Made by a program: the position numbers and the translations under genes | The notes under the pieces: generated by a model | Database searches by the model: none | The model's input: only the letters and a program-made list of their open reading frames with translations | Told to the model about the DNA's origin: nothing | Shown: positions 3,885-42,779 of the stretch, piece by piece | How the letters are laid out: the number at the start of each line of letters is the position of its first letter | Numbering within the stretch: the first letter of the stretch is position 1 | From: an uncultured Bacteroidaceae bacterium | Lineage (GTDB): Bacteria; Bacteroidota; Bacteroidia; Bacteroidales; GCA-2748055 | Reading direction: 5' to 3' | DNA length: 64,000 nt | Assembly: GCA_964454295.1 (NCBI GenBank) | Contig: CAYVTV010000001.1 | Location: 1,111-65,110, forward strand

Positions 3885-4844
3885 TTGGACAATCTTTTAG
3901 TATCAATATGTTGTTTAACCTATAACCACAAAAATTATATTATCCAGGCATTAGATAGTTTTTTACAACAAAAAACCAATTTTGAATTCGAAATATTAAT
4001 ACATGATGATGCCTCTAAAGATGGTACTATGGATATAATACGTGAATACGAGGTTAAATACCTTAATATTATAAAACCACTTTACGAAAAAGAAAACCAA
4101 TGGGTAAAAGGTCGAAGAGGCTCAGCAGTTTTTAACTTCCCTCGTGCCCGCGGCAAATACATCGCTCTCTGCGAAGGCGACGACCACTGGACAGATCCGT
4201 TGAAGTTGCAAAAGCAGGTGGATTTTTTGGAATCAAATCGTGATTACGCTATGGTTGCAACAGACATAATTCTTGTTGATAAAGAGAATAAACTGATACC
4301 GCAAAATAATATTGTGTTAACGCAAAGAGCGTTACGCAAACCTGATGTGAATTTTTTCGATCTTCTTCAGACAAATCTGATAAACACATTGACCGTTTGT
4401 GTAAGAACGGATATAATTCAGGAATTAGCGAATGAAGTTGTGAACAGGGACCTATGGTTTGTGATAGACAAATGGTTCTGGCTGAATATTGCAATGAAAT
4501 ATAAAATCAGGTTATTTGATGAGAAAACCGCTGCATACAGGATTCATCAAGATGGCATAAGTCATAATGATGTATATATGTCTAAACGCATTCCCTTAAT
4601 TCGTTATGATGTGGTGAGAAAGTTCTTTCGTTCCGGGAGTATATCAGGATTAGATCATCAAAAACTCTCCATTCTTGCAGACAATTATTTTATTCTCATA
4701 TTATCAAAATACCTGGGACTTGGCAAAAAAATGTTACTGATAGGAAATTTTGTGATGTGTCCCAAGCTTTTTCTGATGTTTATTAAGATTACTATTAAAC
4801 GGGCCTTGAATAAGTTAAAACCTAAGTTTCAAGTCTATTTATAA
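3885..4844 (+). CDS. Glycosyltransferase family 2
   Basis: Apparent TTG start. GT2 signature: VSICCLTYNH...IHDDASKDGT...CEGDDHW. Confidence 0.85.
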   Translation: MDNLLVSICCLTYNHKNYIIQALDSFLQQKTNFEFEILIHDDASKDGTMDIIREYEVKYLNIIKPLYEKENQWVKGRRGSAVFNFPRARGKYIALCEGDDHWTDPLKLQKQVDFLESNRDYAMVATDIILVDKENKLIPQNNIVLTQRALRKPDVNFFDLLQTNLINTLTVCVRTDIIQELANEVVNRDLWFVIDKWFWLNIAMKYKIRLFDEKTAAYRIHQDGISHNDVYMSKRIPLIRYDVVRKFFRSGSISGLDHQKLSILADNYFILILSKYLGLGKKMLLIGNFVMCPKLFLMFIKITIKRALNKLKPKFQVYL

Positions 4845-4845
4845 T

Positions 4846-5778
4846 ATGGTTGCAGTAATTACAATTAACTACCATTTACATAATCACACCATACCTTGCG
4901 TACATTCCGTATTAAATTCCGATTTCCCTGATCTGAAGGTCTTCTTAATTGATAATGGTTCTGCAGAGGAAGATATTAATGCAATAATAAGAGAATTTTC
5001 AGTTCACCTAAAGGTTACTCTTTTAAGGCTTGAAAAAAACAAGGGGTATGTAGGAGGGGTTAATTATGGACTGGAAATGGCGGGTAAAGAGAACCCTGAT
5101 TATTATATGATCATGAATAACGATACAATAATTGATAAATCGGCAATTACGATGCTTGTAGATACGGCAAAAAAGCATAATGATCATGCTATTGTATCAG
5201 GGAAAGTATACTATTATGATCAGCCTGATATATTGCAACATACCGGTGTAATTTTTTCTGACCACAGGTACCTGAAAACAACTTATCCTGGTAAAAATGA
5301 AAAAGATATCGGACAATGTGATGTAGAAAAAGAAAGAGATTCCCTGGATGATGTTTTCTGGCTGATACCGGCACAAATTGTGAAAGATGTAGGATCATAC
5401 AGCAATTATTTTTATTTGTATGCAGAACAGGGTGATTATGCACAGAGGGCGCGACGCATGGGGTATAAACTTATATACACACCTAATGCAAAACTCTGGC
5501 ATAAAGAGAGCATGACGGCCGGAGGAGGCAATACCAGGGCGCTTCCTATTTGTTATTGGCGCGGCCAGGGAATGTTTATTTTTCAATATCGTAATCTTGA
5601 AAGGAAATACTTTTATCGGTTTATGATCATTAATTTTATGAAATATATAATCAAATCACTTTTTTATAGAGGGAATGAACGTAAGTGCACATTTGCTACT
5701 CTACGTGGCTATTTTTACGGTTTTACATGGATGTTCCATAAAAAACCGAATAATGGGTATAACCCGTATCTGAAATAA
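4846..5778 (+). CDS. Glycosyltransferase family 2
   Basis: GT2-like N-terminus: VAVITINYH...FLIDNGS...MNNDT. Confidence 0.8.
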   Translation: MVAVITINYHLHNHTIPCVHSVLNSDFPDLKVFLIDNGSAEEDINAIIREFSVHLKVTLLRLEKNKGYVGGVNYGLEMAGKENPDYYMIMNNDTIIDKSAITMLVDTAKKHNDHAIVSGKVYYYDQPDILQHTGVIFSDHRYLKTTYPGKNEKDIGQCDVEKERDSLDDVFWLIPAQIVKDVGSYSNYFYLYAEQGDYAQRARRMGYKLIYTPNAKLWHKESMTAGGGNTRALPICYWRGQGMFIFQYRNLERKYFYRFMIINFMKYIIKSLFYRGNERKCTFATLRGYFYGFTWMFHKKPNNGYNPYLK

Positions 5779-5894
5779 ATGCGATTAAACATACTTATTT
5801 TTTCTAGCAAGAATGAAAAACAAATAAGCCCAGTTGATTTTAAGATACAAATCTCTATATTAAACAAAATTGCTGAATACTTTCAATTATTTTA

Positions 5895-7385
5895 ATGCTC
5901 CCTTTTCATTATAATAGTTCTTCATACAAAAGATACATATTCGTGTCCCTTTTTCGGATTGTTGGTATAATCCTCCTGGGGTCAGTTATGGTATATGGTT
6001 TGAATACCCAGCTTTCAAGGTCTGCATTTTATGTTTTTATACTTCTTTTCTTTTATTATACAAAAGATAATATTACAGGTATTGCTGTTTTATTTATTTT
6101 AGCATTACATCCCTGGGGCCTTTTTTATTACAAGCCTTATGATTGGATATTTTCACTTACTAATACTGTGGGAGTAAGTTTTAAAAGTATGATCGGCGTG
6201 GTGATTTTATTAAAGTTTTTTATTTATAAATCATGGAAGAAAAATTTTATAAGGGATGCATTCCTTACATATTACAAGATCTTTGGTTTTTATGTGGGTT
6301 TTCTGATATTATGGGGACTAATTTTCGGATATTCTGCGGCTTCATTTTTTAGTTTAATTCATAGTTTACCTGCCCTGGTTTTATTCTTAGTTATATCCCG
6401 GGTATTTGATCCAAAAGCTCTATATTTATTTAACAGAATTATTTTTATTTTTACCTTAATTCATACATTTATTTCCATAGTGGATATTATTTCCGCAGGA
6501 AAAATAACCGAACTATTATTTTTTAACAGGCTGGCTTCAACAGGTGCTGTATGGGATGAAGAATTAATCCGTTTGCTAGGAGGAATAACTTTTGCTTTAT
6601 ATTCTTTTATTACAGGGCTCTATTATCTTGCAAGCAGGAAAGCACAATTTTCAACTTGGTTTTTATGGCTGGTTGTTTTAACCTCCTGGTTTTATATTCT
6701 GAATAGCGCAACAAGGGGATGGATGATTGCTTCAATTATTATGACAGGTTTTTTCATCCTTTACTATTCCAGAAGATTATTATTTGGAAAGAAAAACTTA
6801 ATAATTGCGTTTATAATTATAGCGTTGGGTATTTATTTTACGCCAGGGTTAATAAAAAAAAATGTTAATGTTGCTTTCGATCGTTTTGAAACTGTTGAAT
6901 TTATTCTGGAAGGGGATATGACTGCTGGAGAAACAGCCAGACGCTGGGATGAGAGGGGGCCGCGGGTATTAACCAGGTTTATGGAAAGTCCTGTATTTGG
7001 TTTTGGATATAGTAAAGTTTCAATGGAATACTATGACGGGCATGTAGGCAATCATCTTCTGCTATTAATGGGTGGAGTGGTAGGACTAGCTATTGTTTGG
7101 CTGATTGTTTTATCCCTCATTATTAAGATTTTTTTACTGGAAATAAAAAATAAAGGATATACCGGAATTTTTGTTTTTGGAATGGGATTAATTGCCATTA
7201 TGATCATTCACTCTACAAGCAGAGTTATGATTTCATTCATAATGCCATTTGATTCCGCATTTCTTCTGGCTTTAATATTTAACCAAATTAATGCTCATAT
7301 ACAGGAAGTGAATTATAATAACTTCTATGAGATTAACAATAATTTAAATGAAATTAAAGAAAATCCTTCGTTACATACTTCCTAA
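5895..7385 (+). CDS. O-antigen polymerase (Wzy) / O-antigen ligase-like membrane protein
   Basis: 496-aa protein with more than 10 predicted TM segments and one larger loop (RRWDERGPRV), located in a polysaccharide locus. Confidence 0.65.
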   Translation: MLPFHYNSSSYKRYIFVSLFRIVGIILLGSVMVYGLNTQLSRSAFYVFILLFFYYTKDNITGIAVLFILALHPWGLFYYKPYDWIFSLTNTVGVSFKSMIGVVILLKFFIYKSWKKNFIRDAFLTYYKIFGFYVGFLILWGLIFGYSAASFFSLIHSLPALVLFLVISRVFDPKALYLFNRIIFIFTLIHTFISIVDIISAGKITELLFFNRLASTGAVWDEELIRLLGGITFALYSFITGLYYLASRKAQFSTWFLWLVVLTSWFYILNSATRGWMIASIIMTGFFILYYSRRLLFGKKNLIIAFIIIALGIYFTPGLIKKNVNVAFDRFETVEFILEGDMTAGETARRWDERGPRVLTRFMESPVFGFGYSKVSMEYYDGHVGNHLLLLMGGVVGLAIVWLIVLSLIIKIFLLEIKNKGYTGIFVFGMGLIAIMIIHSTSRVMISFIMPFDSAFLLALIFNQINAHIQEVNYNNFYEINNNLNEIKENPSLHTS

Positions 7386-7998
7386 AAAAGCGAGAACTTT
7401 TCTATCGCACATAATTCCCAGATTTTATATAGTAAATACATACCTGTTGTCAAATCCCGGGCTAATTGAAAATTTACATCTGATAAATAAAAAATATAGA
7501 ATAAAAACAGTCAGTTGGCAGGATGAAGAGAAGCTTAAAAAAGCACATTTATTTCGTGGTCCGGATTCTTATAAAAGCAAAATTCCTGCCAGATTGAATT
7601 CGGAAGAATGGACAGGATTGGCTATATTCGATAAAACCAATGGAGACATAGCTTACCTTGCCTGGATTATTAATAAGAGTATTCCTTATTTTGAGGAGTT
7701 TGGAATATATCTTAAAGACGGTCAGTTTTTATTAAAGGATGGTTACTGTATTCCTGCTTATCGTCATAAGGGACTGCATACCCGGATGGAACAGGAAAGA
7801 ATAAATTATTGTGTCAGACAGGGAGCTAAAGATATATTTATCCAGATTCATAATTCCAATATTAAAGGCGTGGCTTCTGTATTGGCAAACGAATATTTAT
7901 TATACAGCAAAAATTATGTACTGCAGTGGCATGTATTTAATGTGTACAGGAATTTGTCTTCTTTTTTAAAAAATCCTTTTAAAAAAATTGTAAAATAA
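7348..7998 (+). CDS. Hypothetical protein, possibly a GNAT-like acetyltransferase
   Basis: 216-aa ORF. It has a weak GNAT-like segment (IPAYRHKGLHTRMEQERINY). It overlaps the Wzy-like gene end by 38 nt. Confidence 0.4.
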   Translation: MKLKKILRYILPKKARTFLSHIIPRFYIVNTYLLSNPGLIENLHLINKKYRIKTVSWQDEEKLKKAHLFRGPDSYKSKIPARLNSEEWTGLAIFDKTNGDIAYLAWIINKSIPYFEEFGIYLKDGQFLLKDGYCIPAYRHKGLHTRMEQERINYCVRQGAKDIFIQIHNSNIKGVASVLANEYLLYSKNYVLQWHVFNVYRNLSSFLKNPFKKIVK

Positions 7999-25208: not shown

Positions 25209-25358
25209 GGCTGTTTCATAAGTCAAAATATGTTCAACCACGAAGGACACAAAGGATAACACGAAGGTCGCAAAGTATTATATATCAGGCATGTATGCTT
25301 TGTGTCCTTGGTGTTATCCTTAGTGTCCTTTGTGGTTAAAGACACTTATGAGACAGCC
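25209..25358. repeat. Family-1 hairpin repeat, copy A (outward orientation, extended ~150-nt inverted repeat)
   Basis: ggctgtttcataagt...aaccacgaaggacacaaaggataacacgaagg pairs with ccttagtgtcctttgtggtt...acttatgagacagcc. Confidence 0.85.
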
Positions 25359-26090: not shown

Positions 26091-26872
26091 TGCCCGACTT
26101 CACCCTCAACACCTACCACACCCTCCTCACCGTCCTCCGCGCACAGGACTATTCCTTCCACCCCATGGAAGAGCTACCCTTTACCCTTCCCGGAAAGATC
26201 ATCGTCCTCCGTCATGATGTAGACCTCCGCCCGCACCGCGCCCTGCAGACCGCCCTCCTGGAAAACCGCCTCGGCATCAGCGGAACATACTACTTCCGCA
26301 TGGTGCCGCGATGTTTCAATACCGACATCGTGAAGCAAATCCGCGACCTCGGCCATGAAATAGGATACCACTACGAAGACCTTACCCTTACCAGGGGGAA
26401 TATCGATGCGGCTTACACATCTTTCTGCACCCATCTCAATACCCTGCGGCAGTACTACCCGGTAAAAACCGCCGCCATGCACGGCAGTCCCGCCAGCCGC
26501 CACGACAGCCGCGATATATGGACATCATACAGCTACCGCGATCAGGGCATCATCTGCGAACCCTACTTCGATACCGACTTCAGCAAGGTACTCTACCTTA
26601 CCGACACCGGCCGCCGCTGGGACGGATGGAAAGTGAACGTGCGCGATAAAATCACTGGAAAAGAATATGGCCGCGACAACAATATATCCTTCCGCTCCAC
26701 CCGCCATATCATCGCCGCCGCCAACGCCCTCACCCTCCCCGATAAGATCATGTTCAACATCCACCCCCAACGCTGGACCGGCAAACCCCTGCCGTGGATG
26801 AAAGAACTGATCCTGCAGAATGCAAAGAATATAATAAAAAGAGTAATCATCTCCCTTCGTGTTCCTTCGTGA
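26090..26872 (+). CDS. Polysaccharide deacetylase-like protein (CE4-superfamily-like)
   Basis: IVLRHDVDLRP...GISGTYYFR...GHEIGYHYEDL resembles deacetylase-fold proteins found in capsule loci. Its start ATG overlaps the mazF stop (TAATG). Its last codons run into hairpin repeat B. Confidence 0.5.
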   Translation: MPDFTLNTYHTLLTVLRAQDYSFHPMEELPFTLPGKIIVLRHDVDLRPHRALQTALLENRLGISGTYYFRMVPRCFNTDIVKQIRDLGHEIGYHYEDLTLTRGNIDAAYTSFCTHLNTLRQYYPVKTAAMHGSPASRHDSRDIWTSYSYRDQGIICEPYFDTDFSKVLYLTDTGRRWDGWKVNVRDKITGKEYGRDNNISFRSTRHIIAAANALTLPDKIMFNIHPQRWTGKPLPWMKELILQNAKNIIKRVIISLRVPS

Positions 26873-26934
26873 ATACCTTTGTGTACCTTCGTGGTTAAAC
26901 ACGTAATGAGGTTAACCACGAAGGAACACGAAGG
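26854..26934. repeat. Family-1 hairpin repeat, copy B
   Basis: ccttcgtgttccttcgtg...accttcgtggttaa / acacgtaatgag / gttaaccacgaaggaacacgaagg. Confidence 0.85.
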
Positions 26935-26976: not shown

Positions 26977-27342
26977 ATGAACCGCCGCCAGCTCATCATA
27001 TACACCCTGGACATAATCATACTCTCAGCATCCTACCTGCTGATGGCGGCATACAAGCCTTCCTCTATCCACTACCTCACCGACGAGTACCTCATAGCCT
27101 TCGTTTTCCTGCTGGTGGCATGGACCACCTCTTCCCTCTACTTCAACAAATACAGGATAAAGAAGAAACACGCCTTCACCCGGGTGTTGAAAAATATCCT
27201 GCTCCCGAATTTCATCTCTTCGGAACTATCGGCATCGCCACGCTCGCGGAACTATTCCTGGGAAACCTTTACTACCTGCTCATTAAATCCACCGGAAACG
27301 GCTTCCATCTTATCAACCCCCCTCCCAGCAACGCAGAGATAA
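26977..27342 (+). pseudogene. N-terminal TM segment of the initiating sugar transferase, in a different frame from the catalytic part
   Basis: The frame-1 ORF encodes two TM helices (LIIYTLDIIILSASYLLMAAY, YLIAFVFLLVAWTTSSLYF). Meaningful sequence ends near 27215, where frame 3 continues with a third TM helix. Confidence 0.55.
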
Positions 27343-28430
27343 AAAGAGCACGGCAAACCAAAAGCTACAGGGATTTCAACCTTTCCCCCGAGGTGATTGA
27401 GAGAGCCGTGGAAGAACAATGCGGGGAAGGAGCATTTCGGGTTATTGAGGAATATATCGAACCCATAGATAACCAAACCCTGTTTATCTCCACCTCCACC
27501 CGGTTTAATATCGAATTCCAGCCGGATAACTTCTACCGGAATATCGTTAACCTGAAGAGGGTGAACGATATACAATATATAAACAAGTTCTTTGAGTCGG
27601 TAAACAGGAAGCTGCCGGTAAACGGACTTTTCCTGGGATGTGCCGAGACCAAGGATGCCCGCAAGCGGCGTATCCTGGCCAAGTTTCCCCCGGTACTTAA
27701 CTGGATGTTCTATATGGTGGATTTCGTTTTCAAACGTATATTTCCGAAATTTCTGCTTACCAAAAAAATATACTTCCTCTTCACCCGCGGAATGAACAGG
27801 GTGCTGTCGAAGGCCGAGGTTCTCGGGCGACTCTATTCATGCGGATTTGAGGTTGTTGATGAAAGGATGACAGGGAACCTGCTCTTCTTCATCGCGAAGA
27901 AAGATAAGGTCCCGGCGTATGATTTCGACCCTTCCTACGGCCCGTTTGTGAAACTGCGCCGTATAGGTATGGGGGGAAAGATGATCAGGGTGTACAAGTT
28001 CCGCACCATGCACCCTTTTGCCGAATACCTGCAGGATTATGTGTATAAAAAGAACCATCTCGACTGCGGGGGAAAATTCAAAAACGACTTCCGCATCACC
28101 ACCTTGGGAAGGCTCATGCGGAGGCTGTGGATAGATGAGTTTCCCATGGTCATCAATGTGTTAAAGGGGGAAATGAAAATCGTGGGAGTGCGGCCGTTGA
28201 GTCAGCATTACTATGACCTTTACAGTAAGGAATTGCAGGAGAAGCGCATCCTGTACAAGCCGGGACTCATTCCGCCGTTCTATGCCGACCTGCCCGTTAC
28301 GCTGGAAGAGATACAGGCGTCGGAGATGAGATACCTGGAAGCCTATGAGAAGAAGCCGTGGAAGACAGACTGGAATTACTTCTGGAAGGCGATGAGGAAT
28401 ATTTTGTTTAAGAAAGTGAGGAGCAGGTAG
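27120..28430 (+). CDS. Bacterial sugar transferase (polyprenyl-phosphate glycosyl-1-phosphate transferase, WbaP/WcaJ-like), catalytic part
   Basis: The C-terminal domain matches PF02397: KFRTMHP...DFRITTLGRLMRRLWIDEFPMVINVLKGEMKIVGVRPL. Confidence 0.85.
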   Translation: MDHLFPLLQQIQDKEETRLHPGVEKYPAPEFHLFGTIGIATLAELFLGNLYYLLIKSTGNGFHLINPPPSNAEIKRARQTKSYRDFNLSPEVIERAVEEQCGEGAFRVIEEYIEPIDNQTLFISTSTRFNIEFQPDNFYRNIVNLKRVNDIQYINKFFESVNRKLPVNGLFLGCAETKDARKRRILAKFPPVLNWMFYMVDFVFKRIFPKFLLTKKIYFLFTRGMNRVLSKAEVLGRLYSCGFEVVDERMTGNLLFFIAKKDKVPAYDFDPSYGPFVKLRRIGMGGKMIRVYKFRTMHPFAEYLQDYVYKKNHLDCGGKFKNDFRITTLGRLMRRLWIDEFPMVINVLKGEMKIVGVRPLSQHYYDLYSKELQEKRILYKPGLIPPFYADLPVTLEEIQASEMRYLEAYEKKPWKTDWNYFWKAMRNILFKKVRSR

Positions 28431-28467: not shown

Positions 28468-28488
28468 TTAACCACAAAGGACACAAAG
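28468..28488. repeat. Family-1 half-site, copy C (right-arm type), just upstream of the GxxExxY gene
   Basis: ttaaccacaaaggacacaaag. Confidence 0.75.
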
Positions 28489-28503
28489 TAAAATCGGTTA
28501 TCT

Positions 28504-28875
28504 ATGGATAGGGAGAAAATATTTAAGATAATACTGGATTGTGCATATAAAGTGCATTCGGCTTTGGGGCCGGGATTGTTTGAAAGTGCATATGAAGAAT
28601 GTTTGTGTTATGAACTTCAGCAAAGCGGTTTAAACTTTAAAAAGCAAGTCCCTTTACCGTTAGTTTACAGGGATATTAAACTTGAAGCAGGTTATCGGTT
28701 GGATTTAATGGTAGAAAATAAAATTGTCGTTGAAATCAAATCCATTGAATCTTTCACCGATATTCACATGGCTCAAATTTTAACCTACCTGAAGCTTTCG
28801 GGCTGCAGGTTAGGATTATTGGTAAATTTTAATGTCGCACACCTACAAAATGGCATCAAACGTATTATACTCTAA
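28504..28875 (+). CDS. GxxExxY protein (PD-(D/E)XK-like, PDDEXK_3 family)
   Basis: GPGLFESAYEECLCYEL contains the GxxExxY motif. The rest of the family pattern is also present (YRLDLMVENKIVVEIKS...HMAQILTYLKLSG...GLLVNFN). Confidence 0.85.
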   Translation: MDREKIFKIILDCAYKVHSALGPGLFESAYEECLCYELQQSGLNFKKQVPLPLVYRDIKLEAGYRLDLMVENKIVVEIKSIESFTDIHMAQILTYLKLSGCRLGLLVNFNVAHLQNGIKRIIL

Positions 28876-30523
28876 ACCTTTGTGTTCCTTTGTGCTTACC
28901 TTTCCGCGGGCGCTGAAGCTACCCTGCGGAGGCGCCGTGTCCTTTGTGGTTAACCTTCGCATACCTTTGTGGTTAACCTTCGTGTCCTTTGTGGTTAACG
29001 TCTCCACCCTCTCTGCCCAGCCCACCATCCACTCCCTCCTCGATGAACTGAATGCAGACTACAACACCTCCGTCAAACCCCTGACACGTCCACACATACT
29101 TTCCCTTCTCGAATCCATCGACACCACCACTCTCAACCCCCGCCAGAAACACGAACTCACATTCTACCTCAAAGACTACAACAAAGAAAAATATCCTCAC
29201 AAGAATTTCCCCCGCAGAAAAGATGTATTGTACCTCCGCGACAACCTCTTCTCCCTCACCATCAACCCCATCGCCGGAGGCGAAGTCTTCCTCACCGCCA
29301 ACGGCAACGCCTGGCACTGGTGGAACGGACTCTATGCCCATGCCACCGCCGGTAACTGGTCCTTCTACGCCAGCCTCACCGACAACCACGAAAGCGAAAA
29401 ACTCATGTCCCCCTCCTTCCTCACCCAACGCCAGGGAGGGGCGAACATCAAAAGGTTCAGCGACGGAAAACAGGACTACTGGGATTCACGGGGAGGGGTC
29501 ACGTACGACTGGGGCAAAGGACATATAGGACTGGTAAAAGACAACTTCACCTGGGGATCGGGGTATAACGGCTCCATCATCTTCTCCGGCCGCACCCCCT
29601 CCTTCGCACACCTCAGCCTGCAGATACGGCCTGTGAATTGGTTCGAGTTCAACTATGTACACGGCTGGCTGGCGTCGGAAGTCGTCGACAGCGCCCGGTC
29701 GTTCTACTATTCCACCCCTTCAGGCCCGGCTTACCGCAAGATGTACCACCGGAAGTTTATGGCGGCAAACATGTTTACCTTCAAACCACTGAAGGAACTG
29801 CAGATATCGGCAGGGAATGCCATCATCTACGACTACGACAATGCGCATCCGGCATACTTCATCCCTGTGCTCTTCTTTAAGGCGGTGGACCACCACCTGC
29901 AGTCGGGAATGGACAACATGAACTCCATGATGTTCATGGACATCTCGGTAAAACCCCTTCCGAATACACACCTCTATGCCACTGTATTCGTGGATGAGCT
30001 GGCGGTGAAGAGGATCTTCGATCCGGATGAATTTAACTACCTGAGCATAAAGGGAGGCCTCAGACTGAATAACCTGATCGAAAACACATGGTTCGGAGCG
30101 GAATATACATGGACCAACGTGTATCCCTTCCGCCATTATGTGCCTACCCTTAGCTATGAGTCAAACCGGTACAACCTGGGCCATTACCTCACCGACAATG
30201 CGCAGGAATTTTTTGCCACTGCCGGATACAGGCCTTTCCCTCTTACCGCGTTTGAAATAAGCTATACCCGTTGCCTGAAAGGCCCTGATCATACAGTGCT
30301 GGGATCACCACGACTAGGTATCATCCCTTTTACCCCCATAGTGTGGGAGTCGGATGCCGTGGCACTGAAAGCCAGCTGGCAGGTGATAAATGATGTGTGG
30401 GTGTATGGCGGATATACGTGGCAGCATGTGAGAGGCGAACAGGGCTACCTCGATCTGTATACCCCGGCATTCATGCAGGGGAAGAAGGGAATAGTTAACC
30501 TGGGCGTGAGAATAAGCAGATAA
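28832..30523 (+). CDS. Capsule assembly Wzi-like outer-membrane protein
   Basis: The mature part (LDELNADYNTSVKPLTRPHILSLLESI...LNPRQKHELTFYLKDY) resembles Wzi-family proteins and the rest is beta-rich. The ATG at 28832 overlaps the GxxExxY gene by 44 nt. A more plausible start is the GTG at 28937 inside repeat D. Confidence 0.6.
   Translation: MSHTYKMASNVLYSKPLCSFVLTFPRALKLPCGGAVSFVVNLRIPLWLTFVSFVVNVSTLSAQPTIHSLLDELNADYNTSVKPLTRPHILSLLESIDTTTLNPRQKHELTFYLKDYNKEKYPHKNFPRRKDVLYLRDNLFSLTINPIAGGEVFLTANGNAWHWWNGLYAHATAGNWSFYASLTDNHESEKLMSPSFLTQRQGGANIKRFSDGKQDYWDSRGGVTYDWGKGHIGLVKDNFTWGSGYNGSIIFSGRTPSFAHLSLQIRPVNWFEFNYVHGWLASEVVDSARSFYYSTPSGPAYRKMYHRKFMAANMFTFKPLKELQISAGNAIIYDYDNAHPAYFIPVLFFKAVDHHLQSGMDNMNSMMFMDISVKPLPNTHLYATVFVDELAVKRIFDPDEFNYLSIKGGLRLNNLIENTWFGAEYTWTNVYPFRHYVPTLSYESNRYNLGHYLTDNAQEFFATAGYRPFPLTAFEISYTRCLKGPDHTVLGSPRLGIIPFTPIVWESDAVALKASWQVINDVWVYGGYTWQHVRGEQGYLDLYTPAFMQGKKGIVNLGVRISR
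28877..28999. repeat. Family-1 left-arm bricks, copy D (three GTGGTTAAC cores), just downstream of the GxxExxY gene
   Basis: cctttgtgttcctttgtg ... gtgtcctttgtggttaacc ... cctttgtggttaaccttcgtgtcctttgtggttaac. Confidence 0.8.
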
Positions 30524-30528
30524 CGCCC

Positions 30529-30628
30529 CCTTCGTGTACCTTAGTGACATCCTTCGTGTCCTTTGTGGTTAAATACGTACGGAGATTAACCACGAAGGAC
30601 ACAAAGGGTTACACCAAGGTACACGAAG
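30529..30628. repeat. Family-1 hairpin repeat, copy E
   Basis: ccttcgtgtaccttagtgacatccttcgtgtcctttgtggttaa / atacgtacggag / attaaccacgaaggacacaaagg... Confidence 0.85.
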
Positions 30629-31664: not shown

Positions 31665-31764
31665 CTTCGTGTTCCTTTGTGAAATCCTTCGTGTACCTTC
31701 GTGGTTAAATACGTATTGAGATTAACCACAAAGGACACGAAGGATTTCACGAAGGACACGAAGG
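31665..31764. repeat. Family-1 hairpin repeat, copy F (arms of ~43 nt, near-perfect)
   Basis: cttcgtgttcctttgtgaaatccttcgtgtaccttcgtggttaa / atacgtattgag / attaaccacaaaggacacgaaggatttcacgaaggacacgaag. Confidence 0.9.
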
Positions 31765-32914: not shown

Positions 32915-33014
32915 CCTTAGTGTCCTTTGTGTCAGCCTTCGTGTCCTTCGTGGTTAACCTCATTACGTATTTAACCACAATGGACACAAAGGTATATCAC
33001 AAAGGACACGAAGG
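32915..33014. repeat. Family-1 hairpin repeat, copy G (loop in inverted orientation)
   Basis: ccttagtgtcctttgtgtcagccttcgtgtccttcgtggttaa / cctcattacgtat / ttaaccacaatggacacaaagg...cacgaagg. Confidence 0.85.
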
Positions 33015-33031
33015 AATACAATTATTACACT

Positions 33032-34147
33032 ATGATATCAAAAAATGAAAAAATCTACCTCGCCGGCCATACCGGCCTCGTTGGCTCCGCCCTCATGCGC
33101 AAGCTTACCGACAAGGGGTATGCCGGTATCGTCAGCAGCACTATTGACGAGCTCGACCTCAAAGATAATGTCAGGGTCGATGAGTTCTTCAGGAAAGAGA
33201 AGCCGGCATATGTCTTTCTTGCCGCTGCCAAAGTGGGAGGTATTGTCGCCAACAACACCTACAGGGCCGACTTTATCTATGAGAACATTCAGATACAGAA
33301 CAATGTGATCATCAACGCATGGAAGCATGGGGTGAAGAAGCTCATCTTCCTGGGCAGCTCCTGTATATACCCTAAGAATGCACCCCAGCCGCTGAAAGAG
33401 GAATACCTCCTTACCTCTGAACTGGAATATACGAACGAGCCGTATGCCATAGCCAAGATCGCCGGCATAAAGATGTGCGAAGCTTTCAACCTGCAGTATG
33501 GTACCAACTTCCTCTGCGTGATGCCTACCAACCTTTTCGGCCCCAACGATAATTTCGACCTGGAAAGATCGCATGTCATGCCCGCCATCATACGCAAGCT
33601 CCACCTGGGGAAATGCCTTATGAATAACGATGTGCCCGCACTGCGAAGAGACTTCAGCAGGTACCCGGTGGAAGGTATCGACGGCAGCGCAGAGGAAGAG
33701 GAGATAATGAAAAAACTGTCAAAATACGGGATTTCCCGCGACAATAACGGAGTGGTTGTACAATTCTGGGGAACGGGAACACCCCGCCGCGAGTTCCTTC
33801 ATTCTGACGATGTGGCCGATGCCATTGTGTTTATCTTTGAAAACCTGGATTTTAACGACCTTATAGAAGATCCTTCCATGCTGAAGGCAGAGGTGAAAAA
33901 TATACGCAATACCCATATCAATATCGGAAGGGGAGAGGATATAGCCATAAAAGACCTGGCAACCCTCATTGCAGAGATCACCGGGTTCAAAGGCAGAGTT
34001 GAATGGGATACTTCCCGTCCCGACGGAACCATGCAGAAGCTTATGGATGTTTCAAAATTAACCCGGCTGGGATGGAAACCCAAACTGAGCCTGAAAGAAG
34101 GAATAGAGAAGGTTTATGAATTCTATTCTCCTTCGTGTCCTTCGTGA
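33032..34147 (+). CDS. fcl: GDP-L-fucose synthase (GDP-4-keto-6-deoxymannose 3,5-epimerase/4-reductase)
   Basis: IYLAGHTGLVGSAL, AAAKVGGI, SSCIYPK and YAIAK motifs. It sits directly downstream of gmd. The last ~6 codons lie in hairpin repeat H. Confidence 0.9.
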   Translation: MISKNEKIYLAGHTGLVGSALMRKLTDKGYAGIVSSTIDELDLKDNVRVDEFFRKEKPAYVFLAAAKVGGIVANNTYRADFIYENIQIQNNVIINAWKHGVKKLIFLGSSCIYPKNAPQPLKEEYLLTSELEYTNEPYAIAKIAGIKMCEAFNLQYGTNFLCVMPTNLFGPNDNFDLERSHVMPAIIRKLHLGKCLMNNDVPALRRDFSRYPVEGIDGSAEEEEIMKKLSKYGISRDNNGVVVQFWGTGTPRREFLHSDDVADAIVFIFENLDFNDLIEDPSMLKAEVKNIRNTHINIGRGEDIAIKDLATLIAEITGFKGRVEWDTSRPDGTMQKLMDVSKLTRLGWKPKLSLKEGIEKVYEFYSPSCPS

Positions 34148-34244
34148 AACCCTTAGTGTCCTTTGTGGTTAAATACGTATTGAGGTTAACCACAAAGGAC
34201 ACGAAGTACAACACAAAGGTACACAAAGGTTAATACGTAACCAC
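34130..34244. repeat. Family-1 hairpin repeat, copy H
   Basis: ccttcgtgtccttcgtgaaacccttagtgtcctttgtggttaa / atacgtattgag / gttaaccacaaaggacacgaag... Confidence 0.85.
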
Positions 34245-35352: not shown

Positions 35353-35461
35353 CCTTTGTGTACCTTTGTGAATCCCTTCGTGTCCTTCGTGGTTATTCTC
35401 ATTACGTATTTAACCACGAAGGACACGAAGGGATTCACAAAGGTACACAAAGACACAAAGG
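35353..35461. repeat. Family-1 hairpin repeat, copy I (loop inverted)
   Basis: cctttgtgtacctttgtgaatcccttcgtgtccttcgtggtta / ttctcattacgtat / ttaaccacgaaggacacgaagggattcacaaaggtacacaaag. Confidence 0.85.
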
Positions 35462-37657: not shown

Positions 37658-37780
37658 AACCACAAAGGAACACAAAGGATATCACGAAGGACACAAAGGG
37701 CAATCATTCAGCAATATGGACTTCGTGTCCTTCGTGAAAAACCTTCGTGTCCTTCGTGGTTAAATACGTAATGCTGTTAA
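37658..37780. repeat. Family-1 repeat, copy J (outward orientation)
   Basis: aaccacaaaggaacacaaaggatatcacgaaggacacaaagg ... cttcgtgtccttcgtgaaaaaccttcgtgtccttcgtggttaaatacgtaatg. Confidence 0.8.
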
Positions 37781-39965: not shown

Positions 39966-40054
39966 TAACCACGAAGGACACAAAGGTTAACCACGAAGGA
40001 CACGAAGTTTAAATACAGAAGGACACGAAGGTTAACACAAAGGAATACGAAGGG
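39966..40054. repeat. Family-1 bricks, copy K (tandem right-arm units only, no opposing arm)
   Basis: taaccacgaaggacacaaagg ttaaccacgaaggacacgaag ... ggacacgaagg ttaacacaaaggaatacgaagg. Confidence 0.8.
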
Positions 40055-41955: not shown

Positions 41956-42056
41956 CCTTCGTGTCCCTTCGTGAAAACCTTTGTGTCCTTTGTGGTTAAC
42001 CTTAAAACGTATTTAACCACGAAGGACACGAAGGATGGCACAAAGGGACACGAAGG
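41956..42056. repeat. Family-1 hairpin repeat, copy L
   Basis: ccttcgtgtcccttcgtgaaaacctttgtgtcctttgtggttaa / ccttaaaacgtat / ttaaccacgaaggacacgaaggatggcacaaagggacacgaagg. Confidence 0.85.
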
Positions 42057-42686: not shown

Positions 42687-42779
42687 CCTTTGTGCCCTTT
42701 GTGAAACCCTTAGTGTCCTTCGTGGTTAATTTTTTTTACCACAAAGGACACAAAGGATGCACAAAGTACACGCGAAGGG
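42687..42779. repeat. Family-1 hairpin repeat, copy M (T-rich loop)
   Basis: cctttgtgccctttgtgaaacccttagtgtccttcgtggttaa / ttttttt / taccacaaaggacacaaaggatgcacaaag... Confidence 0.8.

Follow-up and report, generated by a model that had tools for sequence, protein, structure and literature searches.

The question raised by this locus is whether a small gene and the hairpin repeat that frames it belong together. In the window analysed here (the whole stretch of 64,000 nt from an uncultured Bacteroidaceae bacterium, contig CAYVTV010000001.1), a gene for a GxxExxY-family protein, a predicted PD-(D/E)XK nuclease, lies between oppositely oriented arms of a repeat built from 8-nt bricks (CCTTYGTG on one strand, CACRAAGG on the other), with a right-type arm (R-arm) upstream and a left-type arm (L-arm) downstream. 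Comparison of this 64-kb window with 20-kb loci of other genomes (labelled L001 etc.) revealed that the arms are inherited together with the GxxExxY gene as a single unit, linked across phyla and genomic contexts and with conserved polarity. We could not find an earlier description of this family-wide rule in the literature. In the window the unit consists of the following parts:

28468–28488, + strand: upstream R-arm TTAACCACAAAGGACACAAAG, with TTAACCAC at its outer end followed by two CACAAAG(G) bricks; truncated
28489–28503, + strand: 15-nt leader TAAAATCGGTTATCT, from the R-arm to the ATG; kept in relatives
28504–28875, + strand: GxxExxY gene (ATG 28504, TAA 28873–28875), encoding a predicted PD-(D/E)XK nuclease of 123 aa
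28878–28903, + strand: proximal L-arm bricks CCTTTGTGTTCCTTTGTGCTTACCTTT, from sequence inspection and complementarity
28904–28936, + strand: ~33-nt GC-rich insert CCGCGGGCGCTGAAGCTACCCTGCGGAGGCGCC splitting the L-arm; a local stem in the predicted fold
28937–28999, + strand: three distal L-arm units, each closing with GTGGTTAAC (ends 28954, 28977 and 28999)

The initial annotation, made from the letters of the window, had described this layout, and its observations are confirmed: an R-arm half-site (28468–28488) lies 15 nt upstream of the open reading frame (ORF), the L-arm starts 2 nt after the stop codon, where CCTTTGTGTTCCTTTGTG (beginning at 28878) opens the CCTTTGTG bricks of the downstream arm, and the same outward arrangement is present in two gene-less copies (25239–25334 and 37661–37758). 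It had also pictured the gene as if carried in the hairpin loop, which does not fit the canonical hairpin, as the gene-bearing unit is permuted, with TTAACCAC and GTGGTTAA at its outer ends. The upstream half-site is complementary to 28978–28998 (21 nt, 95%) and to 28937–28953 (17 nt, 100%). Alignment with the same locus in two relatives (L081 and L084), both with four bricks per arm, indicates that two middle bricks (22 nt) have been deleted from the upstream arm of the window copy, and that its downstream arm has gained duplicated GTGGTTAAC units and the GC-rich insert, which is not present in L081 or L084. The G+C content of the gene is 35.5%, against 48–53% in neighbouring genes, and tblastn of the window identified no further GxxExxY paralogues.

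The assignment of the ORF to the GxxExxY family, as first proposed, is borne out by full-length matches to PF13366 (PDDEXK_3; E=3e-43, 147.3 bits against a cut-off of 22) and TIGR04256 (E=6e-45, 152.4 bits against a cut-off of 35). The motif is present as G24-L-F-E27-S-A-Y30 and, together with D67, E77 and K79, is invariant among 43 homologues, the catalytic residues E27, D67, E77 and K79 all being intact; dN/dS of 0.07–0.11 indicates purifying selection on the gene. An AlphaFold2 model (pLDDT 77.8) has the order helix-helix-strands-helix-strand, and Foldseek searches against the PDB gave weak matches (E≥0.047), all to PD-(D/E)XK enzymes (Cas4 SSO0001, MspJI, DrdV, EndA and EcoRV), while a sequence search for a solved structure of a relative found none. 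The profile match to the Cas4 core is likewise marginal, and a defence or phage role was set aside, with marginal Cas4 matches, one PHROG of unknown function and one viral contig only. Clustering at 50% identity leaves 20,802 representatives of the very large PF13366/TIGR04256 family, two-domain fusions among them; many database proteins of 270–295 aa hold two GxxExxY domains (representatives P0241–P0247). The one survey found to list the family gives its function as unknown and reports multiple transfers (PMC3424549); beyond this survey, literature searches yielded nothing on the bricks, on PF13366 or on what GxxExxY proteins do.

Scanning species-representative genomes with the protein yielded 80 GxxExxY loci, of which 78 were testable. 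In a motif-free test, inverted complementarity of the 120-nt flanks was compared with that of ~185 control pairs from the same locus. At 50 of the 78 loci the flanking inverted repeat exceeds every control pair (z>4), and 15 more were recovered with flanks defined from the protein match (65/78 in all); the remaining loci mostly have weaker bricks. These loci come from ~nine phyla (Bacteroidota, Ignavibacteria, Cyanobacteria, Alpha- and Gammaproteobacteria, Acidobacteriota, Chloroflexota, Nitrospirota, Verrucomicrobiota and Armatimonadota). Heptamer bricks that fit CRCARAG (variants CACAAAG, CACAGAG, CGCAAAG, CGCAGAG and CGCAATG), 2–4 to an array, make up the arms, which are usually bounded by TTAACCAC...GTGGTTAA, the outer end reading TTAACCAC, TTTAAACGC or TTCACCAC. 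An apparent likeness of TTAACCACA to a DnaA box was dropped, as other lineages have TTTAAACGC instead. Polarity is R-gene-L at ~50 loci and L-gene-R at ~6. Identical CACRAAGG bricks flank the gene in ~15 loci, being rare elsewhere in those loci; in the 150 nt next to the gene they show an 18.7-fold enrichment. When small ORFs in general were screened (n=1674), strong inverted repeats flanked 79, of which 72 were GxxExxY genes. L120 (3492–4330) carries two adjacent tandem paralogues, the first with a truncated C-terminus, that have different brick types, indicating that arms follow the gene and not the host. Where the loci hold gene-less copies away from the gene, the cognate brick type predominates (22 versus 4, and 5 versus 0), and in L001, L003 and L137 a complete hairpin is found on each side of the gene, in direct orientation.

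The converse search, blind to protein, used a palindromic arm pattern, TAACCACAAAGG-N(440-470)-CCTTTGTGGTTA, and identified 49 inserts in 48 metagenome loci. All 49 encode a GxxExxY homologue (39–100% identity). The link of gene and repeat suggested in the initial annotation is thus supported: other GxxExxY genes are systematically flanked by inverted bricks, as it had proposed to check (65/78 loci; 49/49 inserts). Outer partner arms are absent from all 43 metagenomic cassettes with sufficient flank, and in 44 oriented cassettes conservation ends at T/TAACCAC...GTGGTTA/A (slashes mark the ends). At one site the cassette seemed to be inverted, but only because it had been oriented by its longest ORF; with tblastn orientation the effect vanished.

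Of 71 loci, 45 have the neighbours on both sides pointing the same way as the gene, and in six both are opposed. Gaps around the gene are ~40–100 nt, about the length of an arm; arms abut start and stop codons, and the host operons vary (metH, beta-oxidation, polysaccharide loci). In several Chitinophagaceae (L038, 8869–13063; also L012, L013, L028 and L052), the cassette lies between the homocysteine-methyltransferase part and the rest of methionine synthase, and the TAA of TTAACCAC is the stop codon of the upstream gene.

Small ORFs of other families are found in similar settings. In L077 (11787–12164), a PF05635 (23S rRNA-intervening-sequence/Avd-like) gene is bracketed by inverted GACGAGGGACAAGGGGCGAGT units, and in L086 (3143–3529) a DUF559 endonuclease gene, sharing a gap between sugar transferase and Wzi-like genes with a GxxExxY remnant, is bracketed by a CCCCTCCC...GGGAGGGG palindrome. 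A small ORF in a brick hairpin may thus be a broader architecture. Separately, GC-rich stem-loops of ~20–33 nt are present inside arms of three unrelated cassettes (window 28904–28936, L120 ~4340–4365 and the upstream arm of L001), which suggests a second tiny element targeting brick arms.

The brick repeat is abundant in the window. CCTTTGTGGTTAA (≤2 mismatches) occurs 35 times against 2.5 expected, a number reached in none of 100 shuffles, and ~13 intergenic gaps between 25 and 49 kb hold the hairpin repeat. As it is found in most gaps of this region, flanking alone is not significant inside the window; what is distinctive at the gene-bearing unit is its polarity, R-arm upstream and L-arm downstream, without partner arms. 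Ten complete 'inward' hairpins of 70–110 nt, in gaps from 26.8 to 48.9 kb, are laid out as L-arm (2+2 bricks), GTGGTTAA, loop, TTAACCAC and R-arm, and agree with the arms of the gene in their bricks, in the 2+2 arrangement of these and in the GTGGTTAA end. The 13-nt loop AWACGTAWTGAGR is common to eight of the ten, in either orientation. The gene-less copies, to which no strand is assigned, are:

25239–25334: outward copy (R-arm, 22-nt spacer, L-arm), polarity as in the gene-bearing unit
26854–26934: inward hairpin, also at the orthologous site in L084 (86% identity)
30529–30607: inward hairpin
31674–31764: inward hairpin
32924–33014: inward hairpin, loop flipped
34130–34229: inward hairpin
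35353–35461: inward hairpin, loop flipped
37661–37758: outward copy (R-arm, 21-nt spacer ending ATGGA, L-arm)
39970–40043: array of R-type bricks only
41956–42056: inward hairpin, loop flipped
42687–42756: inward hairpin, short loop
46935–47026: inward hairpin, short loop
48832–48931: inward hairpin

No Rfam family, rRNA included, reached its gathering threshold in a scan of the window; the hairpins resemble miRNA-precursor models, below threshold only. L084 contains other brick families in inverted arrays at 5620–5960 and 7030–7640 (GGGATCAC/GTGATCCC, CCATYGTCC and GGGTTATT), one of which occupies the site of the CCTTYGTG hairpin at 30529–30607 of the window, indicating that hairpin families turn over at a given gap.

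How long the cassette has been at this locus can be judged from relatives. Gene and arms are present between the sugar transferase and Wzi-like genes in L092 (100% protein identity, a JGI metagenome), L081 (84%) and L084 (74%); relatives with the gene at this position but without bricks, which the initial annotation would have taken as evidence against the link, were not found, as all three hold arms. The more distant L085 and L086 have only decayed 3′ remnants of the gene plus a CGCAAAG hairpin. The non-coding stretch of upstream arm and leader is 86–87% identical to those of L081 and L084, as is the gene-less copy at 26854 to its counterpart in L084 (86%), while third codon positions are 56% identical between window and L084 (dS ~2). 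Arms and gene-less copies are thus better conserved than third codon positions, and the cassette here is an old, conserved resident, inherited vertically, and not a recent insertion. In L084 (3831–4000) the gene is followed by an L-arm, a 3′ gene remnant and a second L-arm in tandem. Another pair of loci, L082 (6372–6420) and L083 (1792–1840), shows ~99% identity across the upstream genes, across the cassette and across its two arms, and diverges completely directly past GTGGTAAAA, with which the downstream arm ends on its outer side; a rearrangement breakpoint or an assembly chimera at the repeat may be the cause.

The reading that we favour, with a probability of roughly 0.5, is that of a hairpin-bracketed nuclease cassette in which the arms are cognate cis sites and the gene-less hairpins are derivatives. 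The cassette, of ~480 bp, lies co-directionally inside host operons, with oppositely oriented arms around the ORF, and the predicted PD-(D/E)XK nuclease would bind or cleave the arms, probably as DNA (duplex arrays, hairpin or cruciform). By analogy with REPINs and their single-copy RAYT (described below), the gene-less hairpins between 25 and 49 kb may rely on the nuclease in trans for spread or homogenisation. Pairing of the arms extends to the transcript, so that in the operon mRNA the cassette probably also acts like an intervening sequence, with a long stem looping out the ORF.

Several observations weigh against this reading. About 6 of the 78 loci have no arms, and ~24 of the 49 metagenomic inserts represent one orthologous site, the gap between thiolase and acyl-CoA dehydrogenase genes; as these are not independent, the independent count is nearer 20–25 sites. 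No direct repeat suggestive of target-site duplication was found outside the ends of the 44 oriented cassettes, no clean empty site was found at the window locus among relatives, and no recent identical copies of the cassette were found, paralogues being divergent and orthologous sites occupied or with decayed remnants. The case for mobility thus comes solely from how varied the contexts and hosts are. The gene has also diverged in step with its neighbours (84/83/71% identity for L081; 74/74/74.5% for L084), as would be expected of a host function that has been domesticated no less than of a selfish element. Protein similarity and brick type are only loosely related, CACAAAGG arms being found with proteins 39% identical to the query, and in L079 (8290–8890) a 140-aa zinc-ribbon ORF lies between CGCAGAG R- and L-arms, with the GxxExxY gene adjacent.

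Under one alternative the cassette resembles an intervening sequence and works at the RNA level: the arm stem would be cut by RNase III or block ribosomes, excising or silencing the ORF and insulating the operon, and the protein need not touch the arms. The predicted RNA fold of the L081 cassette has the arms in a ~45-bp stem around the ORF (-145.9 kcal/mol, z=-5.2); that of the window copy is weaker, the 17-nt remnant of the R-arm pairing with the outermost distal L-arm unit (z=-2.7). The co-directional placement in operons, with arms abutting start and stop codons, the brick-bracketed PF05635 gene of L077 and a size and layout matching the 23S intervening sequence of Coxiella burnetii (PMC4990558) all favour such a role. 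The arm mismatches, however, are mostly transversions (183), and sense-strand G.U pairs are not in excess (62 versus 60), which speaks for a constraint on DNA or motif and not on RNA pairing, as does conservation of the heptamer sequence across phyla where pairing alone would allow drift; loops of gene-less copies in both orientations are likewise expected for a DNA-level element. As a separate account an RNA-level cassette therefore seems doubtful to us, although it is compatible with cognate cis sites and the two are not exclusive.

Alternatively, the arms could belong to the target, a mobile GxxExxY gene having entered pre-existing brick hairpins. The outward gene-less copies of the window, with their 21–22-nt spacers, could be empty targets, and the complete hairpins on either side of the gene in L001 and L003 are in keeping with insertion; however, bricks in most loci are found only beside the gene, few being present in the 20 kb around it, outer arms are missing from every one of the 43 metagenomic cassettes, the adjacent paralogues of one contig have two brick types and there are no separate element ends inside the arms, making this origin unlikely. 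We regard as similarly improbable a domesticated system without selfish spread, in which the hairpins are operon punctuation (mRNA processing or stability, or DNA structure) and GxxExxY is the host endonuclease servicing them. Long co-inheritance with neighbours at equal divergence, purifying selection on the gene, conservation of arms and the orthologous gene-less copy above third codon positions, and hairpins between nearly all genes of the polysaccharide locus would suit a host function, but the presence of the family in such different operons, its patchy distribution across phyla with evidence of transfer (PMC3424549), pseudogene remnants at the same site in L085 and L086 and frequent tandem duplication would not. 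That the association is mere coincidence, any gene in this region being flanked because the repeat fills ~13 of its gaps, can hardly be maintained: it is refuted by the 49/49 result of the arm-only search and the control-pair statistics, and all cross-genome results are contrary to it.

Parts of this architecture are known from other systems. The 23S intervening sequence of C. burnetii that carries an S23p ORF is 444 nt long and has a 28-bp stem, with the ORF in the loop and cleavage by RNase III (PMC4990558). The initial annotation had linked the window gene to such sequences by treating GxxExxY as the intervening-sequence protein. That identification fails, as the latter family is PF05635, a four-helix bundle, and the window protein matches PF13366 only; no rRNA is present in the window either. 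The architectural half of the comparison (~450–490 nt, terminal inverted repeats, ~120-aa ORF) stands, leaving the interpretation partly supported. Both are elements of ~430–490 nt with terminal inverted repeats, in which a long stem encloses a ~120-aa ORF within a transcribed unit, and 23S intervening sequences are seen as selfish elements whose way of spreading has not been established. Unlike them, the cassette lies in an operon spacer and not in rRNA helix 25 or 45 (the flanks in the window are protein-coding), its arms consist of a conserved heptamer and their mismatch spectrum does not suggest RNA-level selection.

In REPIN-RAYT systems, doublets of REP sequences (repetitive extragenic palindromes) form hairpins and are accompanied by a REP-associated tyrosine transposase (RAYT) (PMC3116915). 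There too the non-coding flanks of the gene carry a short repeat that is also dispersed intergenically as inverted hairpin doublets, and a small nuclease-type gene is effectively a long-term resident, largely vertical with occasional transfer, as the cassette appears to be from its inheritance at the window locus. Distinct gene lineages have distinct repeat flavours, which the brick types of GxxExxY genes may parallel. The GxxExxY protein differs in being a PF13366 protein of predicted PD-(D/E)XK fold and not an HUH/Y1 IS200-like transposase, its repeats are heptamer arrays instead of 20–40-nt REPs tagged with GTAG or CGTC, arms closely frame the gene, which is co-directional in operons, and many genomes have the cassette but no obvious gene-less population nearby. 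The cassette has in common with IS200/IS605 elements a very small nuclease gene between hairpin-forming ends (complete hairpins on both sides in L001, L003 and L137), but has another predicted enzyme fold, no multi-copy identical elements and mostly inverted half-hairpins.

MITEs (miniature inverted-repeat transposable elements) and Correia-type elements are short hairpin repeats scattered through intergenic DNA, some of them transcribed together with adjacent genes, and IS1397 inserts into REP loops, so that the element is framed by two palindrome halves. The cassette resembles MITEs and Correia elements in its terminal inverted repeats and in the dispersal of gene-less copies as hairpins, and differs from all of these in lacking target-site duplications and in arms that travel with the gene across phyla. 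Free-standing homing endonuclease and mobile restriction endonuclease genes are also small nuclease ORFs between host genes, patchy in distribution and with little effect on the operon; here, in contrast, the comparisons turned up no presence/absence polymorphism that includes an intact empty site, and brick arrays are foreign to those elements. Integron attC hairpins, one after each gene cassette and with an integrase or attI in the vicinity, have RYYYAAC and GTTRRRY at the stem base. A relationship with attC was rejected on the geometry of the hairpins, as GTTAA and TTAAC adjoin the loop and not the stem base in gene-less copies, and the arms are tandem heptamers.

The gene downstream of the cassette bears its imprint:

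28850–30523, + strand: Wzi-like outer-membrane protein gene, from ORF and domain match

The 3′ end of the GxxExxY gene already contains the start of the Wzi-like frame, which then crosses the entire L-arm (28850–29017; L081 1004–1085), such that the hydrophobic core of the signal peptide is brick-encoded (MASNVLYSKPLCSFVLTF...VSFVVNVSTLSAQ/PTIH, the slash preceding the residues that follow), while Wzi-like homologues elsewhere have the usual MKK...AQ/YIP signal peptides. The frame is still open in L081, despite an arm 87 nt shorter, and many database homologues also have brick-derived N-termini (KGAKAQ, LCAFAPLR, MSFVVKEK). For annotation this is a caution, as brick arms get taken for the coding start of genes next to them, with N-termini such as FVSFVVN or KGAKAQ as the outcome. 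Upstream, the initiating sugar transferase gene (Bac_transf, 26977–28430) is split by a frameshift, ORF 26977–27342 corresponding to residues 1–84 and ORF 27120–28430 to residues 86–505 of the 505-aa orthologue in L084, due to either a pseudogene or an assembly error. On a larger scale, positions 1–25000 of the window have a G+C content of 28–40% and are nearly devoid of brick hairpins, while 25000–49000 (40–54%) has a hairpin in most gaps, a contrast that fits a low-GC block recently acquired beside older native DNA.

For the GxxExxY family, a conserved cognate motif at both ends of the gene offers a cheap and concrete hypothesis, that the protein binds or cuts CRCARAG arrays, and may explain a class of long hairpin repeats between genes of Bacteroidota and of other phyla. 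A bolder proposal, put forward tentatively, is that PF13366 nucleases and CRCARAG arms are an ancient, phylum-spanning and unrecognised class of replicator like REPIN-RAYT, whose nuclease would recognise the heptamer arrays and spread or homogenise gene-less hairpins in intergenic DNA, within a wider class of brick-bracketed small ORFs that might include those of PF05635 (23S intervening sequences too) and DUF559. If true, this would be a second, mechanistically independent nested replicator of the REPIN-RAYT type, and would link cassettes embedded in operons with the intervening sequences of rRNA.

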